From positions 4,768,001 through 4,832,000 of the forward strand of contig CM000150.2 in the NCBI GenBank assembly GCA_000004695.1: 64,000 nucleotides of DNA, given 5' to 3'. The notes under the pieces are model-generated. The model searched no databases. It was not told the origin of the DNA and worked only from the letters and a program-made list of their open reading frames with translations. Position numbers and translations under genes: made by a program. Position 1 is the first letter of the stretch; each line of letters begins with the position of its first letter. Positions 17,053 to 64,000 of the stretch are shown here, one piece after another. Source of the stretch: Dictyostelium discoideum. Its lineage: Eukaryota.

Positions 17053-20000
17053 TTAAATTAAATTATGAATTGATTCAATTTCACTTTGAAGTTTTGGGAA
17101 AAAGGATTCTAATTTTTCATGAAGACCACGTAATTCATCAGGACAACGTTTTGAGTGAATGATTAAACCACATTCTAAAATATTAGCTTGACGAGTTAAT
17201 TCTGAAGAGAGTTTAGAGAGGAAAGGTTTTTGTGGACGATATGGTTCAGGTACTTGATAGAAAGCTTCTTTGTAAAGTGAGATACCACCATTTACAGCTG
17301 CATCGATTGAACCATTTAAAGCCATAGCCAAAGGATTTAAGTTTAGTTGTGGTGATTTTTCATATTTCTTTACCATTTCATCCAATTCTTCATTCTTTGA
17401 AGAGACAGAATTGATGGCATTCTCAATTGGTGATAGATCGACATGAAGTTTCTTTATTACTTGAGCACGACGATGAATGGTTGGGAAAGAAGAGTCAGTT
17501 AAAAGGAAATGATTCTTTATCCAAAGATCACCAAATTTATTATTACTATTTGAAACTACTGCACCTGAAGCCTTTTCAAAAGGTTTAGAATAAACGAAAA
17601 CATTTACATCATTTCTCTTTAAGTAGGATTTCGAATTATTTGGTGTACCTGGTATAATGAATTTTTGTTTCTTTTCAACCTCTTGTAAATTGGATGGATT
17701 AACAACGGTGACTAATAAATATTTACCATCGGAATTTTGAATTTCAGTAGTTGGTTCACTTGTGGATTTCAATAATTCAGCATCTGGGAATTTGGCTAAA
17801 ATTCTAGCGGTGAAGTCGGGTAATCTTTCCAATTCAAAACCTTTGTAAAGGAATTCCTTACCTTGAATTGATAGAGGGAATTTCTTACCGTAATAACCCA
17901 CACGGAAGTATTCAGCAAATAGACGTTCAGTGTTTAGAATCTTTTCATAGAATTCCGCTTCTTGGATTGATACCTCTGATAAACCTTTGAAATTATAGGT
18001 TTGTTCATAATGTAATTTCAAATCTTGTAATAGTGTGATACATCTCTCCCAAACTTGACCTTTATCTAAATATTGAATTGCCATTTTCAAAAGACGTACT
18101 TTACGATCACTTGATGATTCTTGTGGCATTGTTGTTGGTTGTTGATTCAATGCCAATGTATAGGGTGGTACAATTTGTTCTGTATTCCATTCATAAAGAT
18201 CTGAATGTAAAATAATTGCAAAACCAGCCTCTGTATAATAACCATTGGTTAAATGTTGATTTAATAACTCGTAAAGATATTTAATATAGGTATCTTTTCT
18301 ATCCTTAAAATATTCCATCATTTTTAAGGTTGCAATAGTTCTCTCCTCTTCAAAGGCACGATCAGTTGGTAAAGTTCTAAATTCAAATAATAATGATAAT
18401 AATTGATTAATATTTGAAATGAATGATTTTGATTCTTTAATTAATAATTCATTACTACCACTACCACCACCACCATTTACACTATCAATTAAACGTTTAA
18501 TTAAAAAGTTTTTAAATATATCTTCATCACAAATTCTTTCTCTAATTGTAATTTTATCTAATACTTCAATCGTTTTACTTTCAATTCTTTTTAATGATTT
18601 ATATTCTAAAAATTCATTTTTAATTATTATAAAAAATAAATTTTGAATAAATTCATTAACATCATTATTACCATTCTATTTTTTTTTCAAAATAATAAAT
18701 TAAAAATATTAATATTTAAATAAATATATGTAAAAATTAAAAATTAAAATTAAAAAACTTACTAATAAAGAATATAATAAATTTACTAATAATGATTGAT
18801 TAAATTGATTTTGTAATTGAATTGTTAATAAATGATTCCAAGATTTAATTATTGAAATTAAAATAAATGATCTAATTTCATCTAATTGTTGTTTAATATG
18901 AGAGAGACGATGAATTCTATTTTCATTTAATCTTAATGATGAAGAAGTTATGAAAGCAAATTTAACATTAAATAATAATGTCCAACCATCTAAATCTGAT
19001 TGAGTAGTGAAATATTTACAACAATAAGGTTCAAGTACTTCCAATACTGATAAGGTAACATTATATTGGAAAAGATTAAGAGTTGGCCATTTTGATGAAT
19101 AAATGGAACGACCAATAAAACCTTCCATAATACGTAAGAATTTTCTGATGAAAGGTTTAATAGTTTTCTCTTCAGTTAGATTCTCTTGAATATATTTTTC
19201 AAAATGATTTGAATATTTAGTTGGTTGACCATTACCTGTAATTGGTGTACCACATTTAATAAAGTAATGAATTATTGTATAGAAATTTGAAAGTAAATAA
19301 GTATGTTCGGTTGTCATTGATGTAAATGTTGTTGTATCACTTGAAATGGTTGTTAACAATGCATCGGCCAATGTTAACATTTTTGTGAAAACAATTGCAA
19401 TAATACCAACTGCTTTATTTCTATCGATTGGATTTAATATTTCAATAGCTTCTAAAAGTAATGCCAATAATTGATTTGATAATCTTAATTCCTCACCTTT
19501 ATTTAAATGTTGATCAATGGTTGAGATTAATGCTGGTAATAAATGTTGATAAGTTGTTGGTCCAATTGGTAATTGAGTTGATAAAATCTTATGATAGATT
19601 GTTAATTTAGATTGATAGAAATTCTTATCACTATAGTAGACTGATTCCATAAAGTCGGATAAAATTACACAAAGTTCAGTTGTATTGAAAAAGTTACTTA
19701 AACCTTTCATAATTACAGCGAAATTACGTAATGCAAATGTTTGTGGTACAATTAATAGCTTCTCATTACTATTTGACATTAAATTATTAAGTAGTGCCAA
19801 GAAATCTCTTAAATCTTGTTTCCATTGAGTTTCTTCATCATCGATGAGTTGTTTGGCTTGTTGTTCTCTAATATAAACTAATCTTGATTTTGTAATCAAT
19901 TGGAACATATAATCCAAGGCTTTTAAAGTATTTGAAATCTTTGCAGTTTCTTTGGTGGAAATATCCTCTATAGAATAGGAAATACATTTCAATAGATGTT

Positions 20001-55986: not shown

Positions 55987-58412
55987 GTAGTAGTAGTAGT
56001 AATAAACCTTCATTTTCACTTGGAGGTGGTAGCACCAACTCTAAAATATCAAAATTCTCTGTTTTATCAAATAGTAATTTAAAATCTATTGCTGGGAAAT
56101 CAAATACAACAAATGAATTATTTCAAAAAAGACATAACCTTGTATTTGGCAATTTAGGAAATAAAATAACCGAACAAAATAACAACAACAGCAATAATAA
56201 TATTAATATTAATAATAAAATAAAATCGAATACTTCAAATGAAACACAATCAAATTCAAACAACACCATCGATGTAAAAAAGAATTACGAATTTTTTCGG
56301 AAACAATATGATATTATAAAAACCAAAGAAAACACGGACAACTATGATTTTGGTATTTTTAATGATATTGGTGATAACGATGAAATTGAAGAAGTTGTAA
56401 ATAAAACAAATTTAACTAAAAAAAGGGAAAGAAACGATGAAATAGCTGATAATAACAAATTTCAAAGAAAAGAAACATATGAATCATCATCAAGTTCCAA
56501 ATCTATAAACAGTAATTACTATAATAGTAATAGTAGTAGTAGTAATAGTAGTATTTTTAGTAGTAGTAATGGTATCAGTGGTAGTGGTAGTAAGAGTAGC
56601 TTAGCGATATCAGGAAAACACAAAGGTTTAAATAACCTTGGAAATACGTGAGTGTTAAAAAAAAAAAAAAAAAATTAATAGAAAATTACTAATTGTATTT
56701 TTTTTTTTTTTTTTAATTTTAGTTGTTATATGAATGCAATTTTACAATCACTTTTTGGTATTAAAAAATTATATAGAGATATTAAAGAGTAAGTGAATAT
56801 ATATTTTTTTTTTTTTGTTTCAATAAATAGTTTATTAATATTAATATTTATTAAAGCGTAAAGAATCAATATTTTAAAGATGATATTAAACTATATAACC
56901 AATTATTAAAAGTTTGGGATTCAGTGAATGATGACGAAGATGATTTATATTCATCTTTATTATTATTTAAATCAAGATATAGTAGAGATATTGGGGTTGA
57001 CACAGAGGATTTAAAAGATTGTATTGATAGTTTAATACCATATTTTAAAGGTTACTCACAACATGATGCTCATGAATTTTTAGTTTCATTTTTAGATTTA
57101 TTAGAAGAACAATTTAAATCATTTTTAATAAAGAAATTTGGTGGTGGTGATGATAATAATAATAATAATAATAATAATAATTATTCAAATAATAATATTT
57201 CATTAACTCTACAATCTTCAAATGATTCTTCAACTAGCAATAACACAGTGAATGGGGATAAGGATAGCGATAAAGATAGCGAAGAAGATGAGGCAGAGAA
57301 ATCATTAGAAATTGAAAAAATTAAAAAAAAAGAAATTAAAGAATTGAATGAAACTGTAAATTCTATCATTAAAGATATTTGTCCAATAACTGCTAATTTC
57401 AAATCATCAATAACAAATATGTTACAATGCTGTAAATGCAATGATATTCAATATTCTGTTGAAGTTTTTAATGATCTATCTTTAAATGTTCCAAAAAATT
57501 CCTTTAGGTATGCAAAATATATTTTCTTTTTTTTTTTTTTTTTTAAAAAAGTATATTCTAGATATTAATACTTATTTATTTATATAAAGTGAAGAGAAGA
57601 ATTTAAATCTTAGTGATTTAGTTGAACAATATTTAAAAGAAGAGATCATTGAAAGAAAGTGTTCAAAATGTAAACATGAAAAATCAAAAATAGTAAAAGT
57701 ATTTTCAAATGTGCCAAATATTTTAGTTTTACACTTGAAAAGATTTAAATTTGATACTTCAAGAAATAAATTTCTAAAGAATAACTATATTACTGAGCCA
57801 CTAGAATCTATAGTTTTAGATCAATATTCAATCGATATCCCTGAAAATAATGATGGGAATGTAAATAATGATAATAATAATAATAATAACGAAAAAGAAA
57901 AAGAAAAAGAAAAAGAAAAAGAAAAAGAAAAAGAAAAAGAAAAAGAAAAAGAAAAAGAAAAAGAAAAAGAAAAAGAAAAAGAAAAAGAAAAAGAAAAAGA
58001 AAAAGAAAATGAAAAAGAAAAAGAAAAAGAAAATGAAAATGAAAAAGAAAAAGAAAGTTTAAATGATAAAAAAGAATTTGATATAGTAAATGTAAAAAAA
58101 GAAATAATTAATGAAAATGTAAATATTAAAAATGAAATACAAAATGAAAAATTGGAAGAAATGGTCAATACTGATAATGGTGCTCTAAAAGAAATCATTT
58201 TAAAATCAAAAAAACAAACTGTAAATTATTCACTTCAAAGTATAGTAAAACATGATGGTACGCTTGATATTGGACATTATACATGTTGTATGAATGTAAA
58301 TAACTCTTGGAAACAATTTGATGACTCTGAAGTTTCTTCAACCGATAGAAATCAAGTTTTTTCAACTAAAAATGGTTATATATTTTTTTATTTAAAACGA
58401 TCAAAAAAGTAA
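55455..58412 (+). CDS. Ubiquitin carboxyl-terminal hydrolase (USP/UBP family, C19 peptidase). 5 exons: 55455-55560, 55648-56647, 56723-56788, 56857-57507, 57590-58412.
   Basis: Cys box GLNNLGNT|CYMNAILQSLF is split by an intron. QHDAHEFLVSFLD box is present. Zn-ribbon Cys pairs: CCKCNDIQ...CSKCKHEK. His box: DIGHYTCCMNVNNSWKQFDDSEV. All junctions (GTAAGT, GTGAGT or GTATGC donors with AG acceptors) keep the frame. A (GAAAAA)n tract encodes (EK)n between the catalytic boxes. Confidence 0.9.
57895..58062. repeat. (GAAAAA)n hexanucleotide repeat, about 27 units, inside the USP coding sequence (EKEKEK...).
   Basis: Direct tandem run. Confidence 0.9.
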
Positions 58413-58601: not shown

Positions 58602-58648
<47 letters not shown>

Positions 58649-58714: not shown

Positions 58715-61700
58715 TTATAAATCATCGCCACATTTTCCAAATGTTTTGCATTGGGTCATTGGAACATGAATACATTTACCACCTTGTTTGATACTGCAGT
58801 AATCACAAGTAAGGACATTGTTATCATTACAATCCACTGGAGTATGGACGACACCGGTTGAATTGCAACAAGAGTCGACTGTACATGGGTTATTGTCATC
58901 AATAATAATTGGTGTATGAGTACAACCAGTTGAACAACATGAATCAAGAGTACAGAAGTTACCATCGTCGCAATTCATTGGGGTATGGACACAACCAGTT
59001 GAATTTGAACATGAGTCAATTGTACATGGATTATTATCATCACATTTCATTGGTGTATGAGTACAACCAGTTGAATTTGAACATGAATCTACAGTACATG
59101 CATTATTATCATTACATCCAATTGGAGTATGAGTTACACCACCTGATTGAGTACATTTATCTTCGGTACATGGATTATTATCATCAACATTGATTGGAGT
59201 GTGACAACAACCAGTTGAATTTGAACAGGAATCTACGGTACATGGATTATTATCATCACATGAAATTGGGGTGTGACAACAGCCAGTTGAGTTTGAACAT
59301 GAGTCAGCAGTACATTTATCTGTATAAATTATTAATTTATTAGTTAGTAAATTTTGATTTGTTAAATTTTTTTTTTTTTTCTTTTAAATAAAAAAACTTA
59401 CTATTATCATCGCAATTAATTGGAGTGTGGACACAACCGGTTGAATTTGAACATGAATCAGCAGTACATGAATTTAAATCATCACAACGAATTGGAGTAT
59501 GAGTAACACCACCATTTTGAGTACATTTATCTTCAGTACAGGCATTATTATCATCAACATTCATTGGGGTATGGACACAACCAGTTGAGTTTGAACATGA
59601 ATCTACGGTACATGGGTTATTATCATCACATTTCAATGGGGTATGACAACAACCAGTTGAATTTGAGCATGAATCTACAGTACAAGCATTTTTATCGTCA
59701 CAAGCAATTGGAGTATGAGTTACACCACCATTTTGAGTACATTTATCTTCAGTACATGCATTATTATCATCGACATTGATTGGGGTATGGACACAGCCAG
59801 TTGAGTTTGAACAGGAATCTACGGTACATGCATTATTATCATCACATGAAAGTGGGGTGTGACAACAACCAGTTGAATTTGAACATGAGTCTACGGTACA
59901 AGCATTTTTATCGTCACAAGCAATTGGAGTATGAGTTACACCACCTGATTGAGTACATTTATCTTCAGTGCAAGCATTATGATCATCAACATTGATTGGG
60001 GTATGGCAACATCCGGTTGAGTTTGAACATGAGTCAACAGTACATGGGTTATTATCATCACATGTAAGTGGGGTATGGACACAACCAGTTGAGTTTGAAC
60101 ATGAGTCTACGGTACATGCATTTTTATCATCACAGGCAATTGGGGTATGAGTGCAACCAGTTGAATTGGAACATGAATCCATTGTACATGCGTTGAAATC
60201 ATTACATGAGAGTGCAACATGTTGACATCCTTTTTCCCATGAGCAAAAATCTGAAGTACATGGGTTTCTATCATCACAAGACATTGGGGTATGGACACAA
60301 CCGGTTGAATTTGAACATGAATCAATGGTACATGGATTTTTATCATCACATGAAATTGGAGTATGAGTTACACCACCTGATTGGGTACATTTATCTTCAG
60401 TACAAGCGTTATTATCATCGACATTGATTGGAGTATGGACACAACCAGTTGAGTTTGAACAAGAATCTACTGTACATGCATTATTATCATCACATTTCAA
60501 TGGGGTGTGACAACAACCAGTTGAATTTGAACATGAGTCTACGGTACAAGCATTTTTATCGTCACAAGCAATTGGAGTATGAGTTACACCACCATTTTGA
60601 GTACATTTATCTTCAGTACATGCGTTATTATCATCGACATTGATTGGGGTATGGACACAGCCGGTTGAATTTGAACATGAGTCAACAGTACATGGGTTAT
60701 TATCGTCACAAGACATTGGGGTATGGCAACAGCCGGTTGAGTTTGAACATGAATCTACGGTACATTTATCTATAAAGTATTGAAAAAAATGTTAAATTAA
60801 AGTTAAAATTTTAGGATTTTAAAAATTTCCAAAAAACTTACTGTTATCATCGCAATTAATTGGAGTATGGGTTACGCCACCTGATTGAGTACATTTATCT
60901 TCAGTACATGCATTGTTATCATCGACATTGATTGGAGTATGGCAACAGCCAGTTGAGTTTGAACATGAGTCTACTGTGCATGGATTTTTATCATCACAGG
61001 CAAGTGGGGTGTGGACACAACCAGTTGAATTTGAACATGAGTCTACGGTACAGGCATTTTTATCATCACAAGCAATTGGAGTATGAGTTACACCACCTGA
61101 TTGAGTACATTTATCTTCAGTACATGCGTTGTTATCATCGACATTGATTGGAGTATGGCAACAGCCAGTTGAATTTGAACAGGAATCTACGGTACATGCA
61201 TTATTATCATCACATGTAATTGGGGTGTGGCAACAACCGGTTGAATTTGAACAAGAATCTGCGGTACAAGCATTTTTATCATCACAAGCAATTGGAGTAT
61301 GAGTTACACCACCTGATTGGGTACATTTATCTTCAGTACATGCATTATGATCATCGACATTGATTGGGGTATGGACACAGCCAGTTGAATTTGAACAAGA
61401 ATCTACGGTACATGCATTATTATCATCACATGAAAGTGGGGTGTGACAACAACCAGTTGAATTTGAACATGAGTCTACGGTACAGGCATTTTTATCGTCA
61501 CAAGCAATTGGAGTATGGGTTACACCACCTGATTGAGTACATTTATCTTCAGTACATGCGTTATGATCATCAACATTGATTGGGGTATGACAACAACCGG
61601 TTGAGTTTGAGCATGAGTCAACAGTACATGGGTTATTATCGTCACATGAAAGTGGTGTATGACAACAACCTGTAGAATTTGAGCAAGAATCTACGGTACA

Positions 61701-62014
61701 TGCATTATTATCATCACATGCAATTGGAACATGTTGACAACCTTTACCACATAAACAACTATCAGCTGTGCATGAATTACCATCATCACAGTTTACTGGG
61801 GTGTGAGAAATACCAGTTTTTGGATTACAAGTATCTACGGTACATTCATCATTATCATTGATATTAATTGGTGTATTTGAGCAACAACCGTTATTACATT
61901 TATCCAAAGTGCATTTATTACCATCATTACAATTTTCATCACATGTACATGATACTTCAGCTTTTTCAACGTTGGCTAAAAAAAAAATAATAATTAGAAT
62001 AAGTAAATTTTTTC

Positions 62015-62045
<31 letters not shown>

Positions 62046-62122
62046 AAACAAAACATTTAATCCATACCTAAAATTATACCAACAAAAGTGAATAAAATTA
62101 ATATTAAATATATTTTATTCAT
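58715..62122 (-). CDS. Secreted cysteine-rich repeat protein built from about 40 tandem 24-aa Dictyostelium-type extracellular-matrix repeats (Dicty_CTDC-like). 4 exons: 62122-62068 (signal peptide), 61975-60842, 60769-59402, 59319-58715. About 1050 aa.
   Basis: Signal-peptide exon MNKIYLILILFTFVGIIL-G|gtatgg joins to ..tttag|CCAACG, giving ANVEKAEVSCTCDENC. The body consists of CDD(N/K)N(A/P)CT(V/E)DSCSNSTGC(C/V)HTP(I/L)x(C/V)DD units 72 bp long. Two internal introns lie at the same place in a repeat (GATGATAAyA|gtaagt ... ttatag|ATAAATGTAC), so the repeat structure is unbroken. The last repeat is followed by a stop. Confidence 0.88.
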
Positions 62123-62869
62123 GATTGCAATTTTAATAAATAAATATTTGATTGGTTTTTTTTTTTTTTTTAGTTTTTTTTTTTTTTTTTTCTTTGTTTT
62201 TTATTTGTTTTATTTTATAAAAAATGAAGTGATAAAAAAAAAAAATTATTACTTCTATTTATACAAAAAAAAAATATATTTTAAAAAAATATTTTAAAAA
62301 TTAAAATAAAATAAAATATTATAATTGATCAATATTAATTATTTACCATATAAATGTGGTAATGATAACAGATGAAATTATAAAAAAAATAAAAAACAAA
62401 TTAAAAAAAAAAAACTACTACTATTGGAAGCTATTGCAACAGCTAATAGAAACAACAAAAACAGTTATCTACTTGACATCATCATATACATACTATGCCC
62501 AATTAAAAATATTTAATAAATAATTTGACAGCATTTTGTTTTTTTTAATTGAAATCAAATTGAAAATATCCAAAAATAAATTTTACTATGTAAAAAATAA
62601 CAATAAAACAATGTGATAAGTAAAATGAGATTTCCCAATGATTATGTATATAGTATTTTTATGGTGTATATGTATAAATATATATGTTGTTCAAAACAAA
62701 TCATATGATAATATTATTTTAAATTACAAATTATTAACCCCCCAACCCCCTATTAACACAGTAAAAAAAAACAAATAAAAAAAAAAATCTATTCTTTTTG
62801 TTATAAAATTTTAATTTATTTTATTTTTTATATTAGTGTTGATTATTTTCCTAATTGTAAAAATGGATT

Positions 62870-63687: not shown

Positions 63688-64000
63688 TTAATCACTATCA
63701 GAACTAGACTCTTCATTATCATAAAGATCATCATCATCACTGTCAGAATCTAAAAATGATAAAGATTTAGGTGGTGGTACTCTTGAACGAGTTGGACGAT
63801 TGGTTGGAGCCTTAATAACTTCATCATCACTGCTTTTATCATCGATTACTTTTGATTTTGAAGTTGTAGCTTTTTTAGTGGCGATGGTGGTAGGTTTCTT
63901 TGGAGGAGCCTTTGATCTCTTTGGTGGAGATTCTGGATCAGATCCTTGATCAGATTCTTGATCAGATTCTTGATCAGATTCATCTGATAACTCTATAACT
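63688..64000 (-). CDS. 3'-terminal 103 codons of an acidic, S/D/E-rich protein whose 5' part lies beyond the window end.
   Basis: The minus strand reads ...ELSDESDQESDQESDQGSDPESPPKRSKAPPKKPTTIATKK...DSDSDDDDLYDNEESSSDSD*, open to the window edge. Confidence 0.5.
   Translation of the reverse strand, partial: VIELSDESDQESDQESDQGSDPESPPKRSKAPPKKPTTIATKKATTSKSKVIDDKSSDDEVIKAPTNRPTRSRVPPPKSLSFLDSDSDDDDLYDNEESSSDSD

Follow-up and report, generated by a model that had tools for sequence, protein, structure and literature searches.

Whether the open frames of a repetitive stretch of about 3.2 kb in the Dictyostelium discoideum genome, tiled by a 72-bp cysteine-rich unit, belong to a single secreted multi-exon protein and, if so, to which member of the Dicty_CTDC family, is the question raised by this locus. 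The array lies in the 64,000-nt window analysed here (GenBank assembly GCA_000004695.1, contig CM000150.2, positions 4,768,001 to 4,832,000 of the forward strand), and all coordinates below count from the first letter of that window. We are highly confident that the locus is ecmB (DDB_G0269132; EcmB/ST310) on the minus strand of D. discoideum AX4 chromosome 1, a four-exon gene for a secreted, cysteine-rich CTDC-repeat protein of the stalk and slug matrix. The gene is already known: since the late 1980s it has been cloned, sequenced and employed to mark cell types, and it is a long-studied, standard prestalk/stalk marker. As a discovery the result is therefore of little weight; the sequence scan that flagged this locus picked up a real, correctly delimited gene.

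The identification comes from published primers. The ecmB primers of one study (PMC12711200, supplementary file 1D), designed for quantitative reverse-transcription PCR, have one exact match each, at 58926-58946 (-) and 58718-58738 (+), and are convergent with an amplicon of 229 bp. The ecmB primers of a second laboratory (PMC11274416) map to 58948-58969 (-), with one mismatch, and to 58874-58894 (+), exactly, and are also convergent (96-bp amplicon). Both amplicons fall within exon 4, in its unique 3' portion (Table 1). The ecmA primers from these sources (PMC12711200, PMC11274416) have no match in the window, also when 2-3 mismatches are tolerated. With both independent ecmB pairs mapping into exon 4 and no ecmA primer matching, the gene is assigned as ecmB. 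Two intron-free open reading frames (ORFs) of the window are identical to the AX4 proteins XP_646782.1 (DDB_G0270412, mitofilin) and XP_646780.1 (DDB_G0270408). We take ecmB, from dictyBase, to be placed on D. discoideum chromosome 1, the chromosome of this stretch. The locus agrees with EcmB/ST310 in organism, chromosome, signal peptide, 24-residue cysteine-rich repeats and primer sites, with no difference detected. The initial annotation had pointed to a likeness with Dictyostelium matrix proteins and had left aside whether this particular paralogue was known; the likeness is correct, and the question is answered by the gene being, very probably, ecmB itself.

On the minus strand, 62122-58715, four exons separated by three GT..AG introns give a coding sequence (CDS) of 3162 nt and a product of 1053 aa. 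The minus-strand ORF list contains long open frames at 60819-62051 and 59340-60716 and a third that ends at the stop codon at 58715; joining the exon segments of Table 1 yields an in-frame CDS, and once the introns are removed the frame is regained at both internal junctions, as is the 24-residue register. The introns are 11-15% G+C, compared with 37% across the mostly exonic interval 60001-62000 (the window overall is ~22-25% G+C). Introns 2 and 3 each interrupt, in phase 1, the second Asn codon of HTPINCDDN/NKCT and are spaced by exactly 19 repeat units. A common origin of these two introns is plausible from their position and phase; their own sequences are not significantly alike (alignment z = 1.9 above shuffles). 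Exon 1 and the first base of exon 2 encode MNKIYLILILFTFVGIILA, of which residues 4-18 form the sole strongly hydrophobic stretch of the protein (mean Kyte-Doolittle value 3.0, compared with at most 0.7 elsewhere). The predicted signal peptide would comprise 19 residues and be cleaved after Ala19. Exon 2 contains no in-frame ATG, and no downstream block carries its own signal peptide. These observations bear out the earlier proposal of one secreted four-exon gene, which is supported by the junctions that restore frame and register and by the N-terminal hydrophobic stretch; the 55-nt signal-peptide exon starts with its ATG at 62122, as had been claimed, and the two short introns placed at an equal position in the repeat do both split CDDN/NKCT in phase 1.

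The product belongs to the family that had been suggested for it. A hidden Markov model (HMM) search with Pfam Dicty_CTDC (PF00526) gave 1377.9 bits, compared with a gathering cut-off of 27 bits, in 42 stretches and without any other domain. A failure of this model to match, named in the initial annotation as a refutation, thus did not occur. Tandem Repeats Finder recovers the 72-nt period with 40.0 copies at 58838-61727 (67% matches), in agreement with the ~3.2-kb array of 72-bp units described initially, and scores a 216-nt period above it, at 12.7 copies and 76% matches. In the protein, ~41 units of 24 residues can be counted, 36 of them consecutive and ungapped, with irregular units at both ends, and the conserved pattern C..DD.N.CT.D.C...GC recurs with the 24-residue tandem period. 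The units follow the order A-B-C, where A is IACDDKNACTVDSCSNSTGC[CV]HTP, B is L[SK]CDDNN[AP]CTVDSCSNSTGC[VC]HTP and C, which has two cysteines only, is INVDDNNACTEDKCTQ[SN]GGVTHTP. The single repeat consensus originally offered does not accommodate this variant third unit (VDDNNACTEDKCTQSGGVTHTP), and the 216-nt higher-order period had been missed.

The same period governs how similar the units are. Over the 36 regular units (630 pairs), mean DNA identity is 73%, and identity of at least 90% is reached by 58 pairs (9.2%), including one identical pair (units 18 and 27). Although 25 of the 36 units have at least one partner at that level, the term 'near-identical' that had been applied to the array is overstated. 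Mean identity is 91% for C-C pairs, 80% among A and B units and 61% between A or B and C; by lag, it is 0.80-0.83 at multiples of three units and ~0.68 at other lags, and 300-nt windows are 86-93% identical solely at every third register. Codon usage in ecmB is strongly biased (for example, TGT 144 versus TGC 21), so that identical codons at identical residues are expected by chance in 64% of cases. The synonymous-codon identity observed over all unit pairs is 0.68, where codon bias by itself predicts 0.64; out-of-phase lags match the prediction, whereas lags of 3n units reach ~0.74 versus ~0.63 expected. Since only in-phase units rise above the level that codon bias predicts for synonymous sites, homogenisation is patchy and block-wise; the array as a whole is not kept homogeneous. 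The best long-range match has a genomic lag of 1584 nt (21 units without the intron), at which the copies are 98.7% identical over 150 nt, 96.3% over 300, 93% over 500 and 90.4% over 700; the longest exact internal repeat is 93 nt. Some blocks are clearly recent copies, so that trimers have been duplicated or converted block-wise. The concerted evolution or recent expansion put forward in the initial annotation is thus only partly supported, by the in-phase units and the recently copied blocks and not at out-of-phase lags. The evolving unit is the 216-nt A-B-C trimer; relative to the whole array, its three unit types are old. The array grew as a three-unit block of 216 nt, and parts of it were later re-duplicated or converted block-wise. 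In AT-rich, codon-biased genomes, concerted evolution should be invoked only after repeat identity has been weighed against what codon bias predicts.

The cysteine pattern of the units was analysed with a unit HMM built from ecmB, by which 1437 fully aligned units were extracted from ecmB and database homologues. The pair C12 and C17 is complete in 1434 of these units. For C6 and C23, 1141 units have both and 218 neither; 78 have C6 without C23, and none has C23 without C6. Within proteins of mixed unit type, the presence or absence of C6 matches that of C23 in the same unit in 118 of 124 cases, whereas C23 of one unit matches C6 of the next in only 52 of 98. The units of ecmB itself comprise 15 with four cysteines, 13 with five (the extra one being C24), 12 with two and one with C6 only. 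Since these cysteines co-occur within units, the simplest reading is a pair of disulfides inside the unit: an inner one, C12-C17, that would be invariant and an outer one, C6-C23, that would be optional. An AlphaFold2 model of units 6-11, made with a 33-row alignment, has a mean predicted local distance difference test (pLDDT) score of 92.9 and two strands per unit, forming a beta-hairpin array. A sequence search of the Protein Data Bank (PDB) gave no match. In a Foldseek search with the hairpin-array model only the cysteine-rich part of the heavy chain of the Entamoeba histolytica Gal/GalNAc lectin was significant (PDB 9gjf_H and 9gjb_H; E = 4.4e-4, probability 1.00, TM-score 0.30), and this predicted structural match may be taken as a lead only. 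For the CTDC unit, of which no solved structure was found, this gives a testable picture: a hairpin in which one disulfide nests within the other, with a fifth cysteine in some units.

The published biology of ecmB provides a frame for this picture. The gene encodes a Dicty_CTDC-repeat matrix protein, is expressed in pstB/pstAB cells, the stalk, the basal disc and the cups, and is induced by DIF-1 (differentiation-inducing factor 1) and c-di-GMP (PMC9117722, PMC4406040, PMC2323390). EcmB has been described as a signal peptide followed by repeats (PMC4406040), and EcmA and EcmB as proteins in which a 24-residue unit with five cysteines occurs more than 20 times, disulfide bridges adding rigidity to the matrix (PMC4210663). 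From this literature, the cells that secrete EcmB into the stalk tube and matrix are those of the prestalk-B/AB, stalk, basal-disc and cup types. Exon 1 would supply the signal peptide, leaving a mature protein of ~41 Dicty_CTDC units and a short unique tail. Each unit may be a beta-hairpin stapled by the inner disulfide C12-C17, with the outer disulfide C6-C23 present in two units of three, so that EcmB may be viewed as a secreted rod of disulfide-stapled hairpins. The unpaired fifth cysteine (C24) of 13 units could form intermolecular bridges in the stalk tube, and such a bridged rod is consistent with the account of matrix rigidity in PMC4210663.

A protein homology search returned relatives that are 38-54% identical to EcmB over long stretches and mostly bacterial or metagenomic, with E <=1e-10 in 4595 of the 8000 scored candidates; named relatives among the matches listed include Myxococcaceae, Chitinophagales, Flavobacteriales and Deltaproteobacteria. 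The bacterial Dicty_CTDC surface proteins, among others from Myxococcota and from Bacteroidota with a type IX secretion system (T9SS) sorting domain, have the same 24-residue unit, invariant C12 and C17 and DDxNxCTxD core as EcmB, and many consist wholly of the two-cysteine unit type that is every third unit in ecmB. Unlike EcmB, they are often fused to Por_Secre_tail (PF18962), PA14, IPT/TIG and proprotein convertase P-domains, are without the A-B-C trimer order, and are encoded by intron-free genes. A further relative is EcmA/ST430 (ecmA, DDB_G0277853), the slime-sheath paralogue, which has the Dicty_CTDC architecture and a secreted matrix role in common with EcmB but occupies a separate locus, its primers having no match in the window. 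The ecmA and ecmB genes are reported to be the product of a gene duplication early in dictyostelid group 4 (PMC9117722, PMC4406040). The heavy subunit of the amoebozoan E. histolytica lectin (PDB 9gjf, 9gjb) has, like EcmB, an extended cysteine-rich array. In a published count there are no Dicty_CTDC proteins in Acanthamoeba, and together with the bacterial relatives this raises the question of horizontal transfer. A more far-reaching proposal would be that EcmB is a strict A-B-C rod in which every third hairpin, without C6-C23, is a periodic softer joint and the 13 free fifth cysteines are periodic intermolecular cross-link sites, and that the CTDC hairpin array has a common ancestry with the bacterial T9SS surface proteins and with the cysteine-rich part of the Entamoeba Gal/GalNAc lectin, possibly by horizontal transfer; taken as a whole, we consider this combination doubtful.

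Several points weigh against the reading of the locus as a four-exon ecmB gene with the disulfide arrangement outlined above. The exact 1053-aa product is absent from a collection of 15 billion protein sequences, and no dictyostelid EcmA or EcmB is among the homologues returned by the protein homology search, which therefore did not name the gene. Either the deposited model differs from the 1053-aa model or the entries are missing from the collection. The neighbouring AX4 proteins are present in that collection, yet the homology search returned no dictyostelid EcmA/EcmB-like protein above 54% identity. The neighbouring genes have DDB_G02704xx identifiers, not 02691xx. One of the four ecmB primers carries a single mismatch to the window, at 58957 (minus strand, exon 4), where the forward primer of PMC11274416 has C and the window T (GGTAACCTCTG versus GGTAACTTCTG); the change would turn Phe into Leu within CDDGNFCT, and may stem from a polymorphism between AX2 and AX4, from the use of an older reference or from an error in typing. 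The name ecmB would follow from primer matches rather than from direct identity with the deposited EcmB sequence, the four-exon splicing is predicted from the logic of the sequence, and the disulfide map is a prediction from cysteine co-occurrence and a modelled structure. Naming from primer matches also leaves room for a different Dicty_CTDC paralogue, such as ecmA, DDB_G0279219 or another of the ~11 CTDC-only members that a published count gives for D. discoideum, whose repeats are very similar and within which orthology has been called 'not trivial' (PMC4406040). This is nevertheless very improbable: the two ecmB primer pairs are unique and convergent in the unique 3' part of the gene and the ecmA primers do not match, and ecmA or another paralogue was rejected on these grounds.

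That the three ORF blocks are separate genes or pseudogene fragments, with the 55-nt exon coincidental, is equally hard to sustain given that the gaps are bounded by GT..AG and contain 11-15% G+C versus ~37% in the mostly exonic 60001-62000, that their removal restores the frame and the CDDN/NKCT register at both internal junctions, that the downstream blocks lack a signal peptide and exon 2 an in-frame ATG, and that EcmB is published as a signal peptide plus repeats (PMC4406040). Separate ORFs of bacterial style were likewise rejected. A somewhat less remote, though still unlikely, alternative accepts ecmB and questions the assembly, in which the array may be collapsed or expanded; the true allele would then differ from the 41-unit product of 1053 aa. 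The stretches of 150 and 300 nt that are almost alike at lag 1584 and the 93-nt exact repeat could mislead a short-read assembly, but longer stretches are less alike (93% at 500 nt, 90% at 700 nt), most unit pairs are at ~73%, and the frame is intact across the whole array. Given this divergence between blocks, Sanger-length or long reads (at least 500 nt) should be uniquely placeable and a collapse is unlikely. Least credible of all is that the 71-aa ORFs of the plus strand (for example, 59564-59779) are real small genes. They are regularly spaced open frames, but they all start at TTG, which is a convention of the ORF lister and not a eukaryotic start codon, and they recur every 216 nt, the antisense coding period, wholly inside the minus-strand CDS; their dismissal as artefacts of the periodicity was well founded. 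The ecmB reading, in which the whole array is one minus-strand transcript, is retained here, and its features are collected in Table 1.

Table 1. Predicted features of the ecmB locus (window coordinates)
Feature	Position	Strand	Description
Putative TATA box	62256..62263	-	TATAAATA, then T-run; ~135 nt upstream of ATG; inferred from sequence
ecmB exon 1, 55 nt	62068..62122	-	ATG, predicted signal peptide MNKIYLILILFTFVGIIL and base 1 of the Ala19 codon; from junctions/translation and hydropathy
Intron 1, 92 nt	61976..62067	-	GTATGG...TTTAG; 11% G+C; holds A/T homopolymer run
ecmB exon 2, 1134 nt	60842..61975	-	Irregular N-terminal units, then repeats through first part of unit 15
Intron 2, 72 nt	60770..60841	-	GTAAGT...ATAG; 15% G+C; phase 1, within second Asn codon of CDDNNKCT
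ecmB exon 3, 1368 nt	59402..60769	-	Length equal to exactly 19 repeats
Intron 3, 82 nt	59320..59401	-	GTAAGT...ACAG; 11% G+C; phase and repeat position as intron 2
ecmB exon 4, 605 nt	58715..59319	-	Includes TAA stop (58715-58717); final repeats and unique C-terminal tail; published ecmB primer sites
Tandem array	58838..61727	-	72-nt units (24 aa) as 216-nt A-B-C trimers, broken by introns 2 and 3; from Tandem Repeats Finder, lag profile and 300-nt copies

The repressor elements of the ecmB promoter presumably contain inverted TTGA repeats, as STATa sites. Inverted TTGA motifs occur upstream of the ATG, TTGATCAA at 62325-62332 and TTGAAATCAA at 62549-62558, but the window holds 22 such motifs versus 33 expected and the motif is uninformative. 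A T-rich run of 61 nt (62156-62216) separates the putative TATA box from the ATG, and homopolymers of 38 A (plus strand, 62016-62053) and 36 T (58607-58642) lie inside intron 1 and just past the 3' end of ecmB, respectively.

Scans of the window for tRNA genes and Rfam families found nothing. The neighbour of ecmB on the other strand is a gene with a ubiquitin carboxyl-terminal hydrolase (UCH, PF00443) domain, convergent with ecmB and with its stop codon ~300 nt from that of ecmB. A (GAAAAA)x27.7 repeat at 57891-58056 (97% matches) codes for a long (EK)n tract in the corresponding ORF, 57711-58412 (+), and this tract is inserted within the UCH domain. Elsewhere in the window, a 422-aa ORF at 17056-18321 (-) clusters with the 2175-aa protein KAM9983357.1 of Dictyostelium cf. 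discoideum and probably represents a single exon within a far larger gene. A 12-nt tandem repeat, AGATTCTTGATC (4.5 copies, 92% matches), occupies 63928-63981, at the window edge and ~1.8 kb upstream of ecmB.

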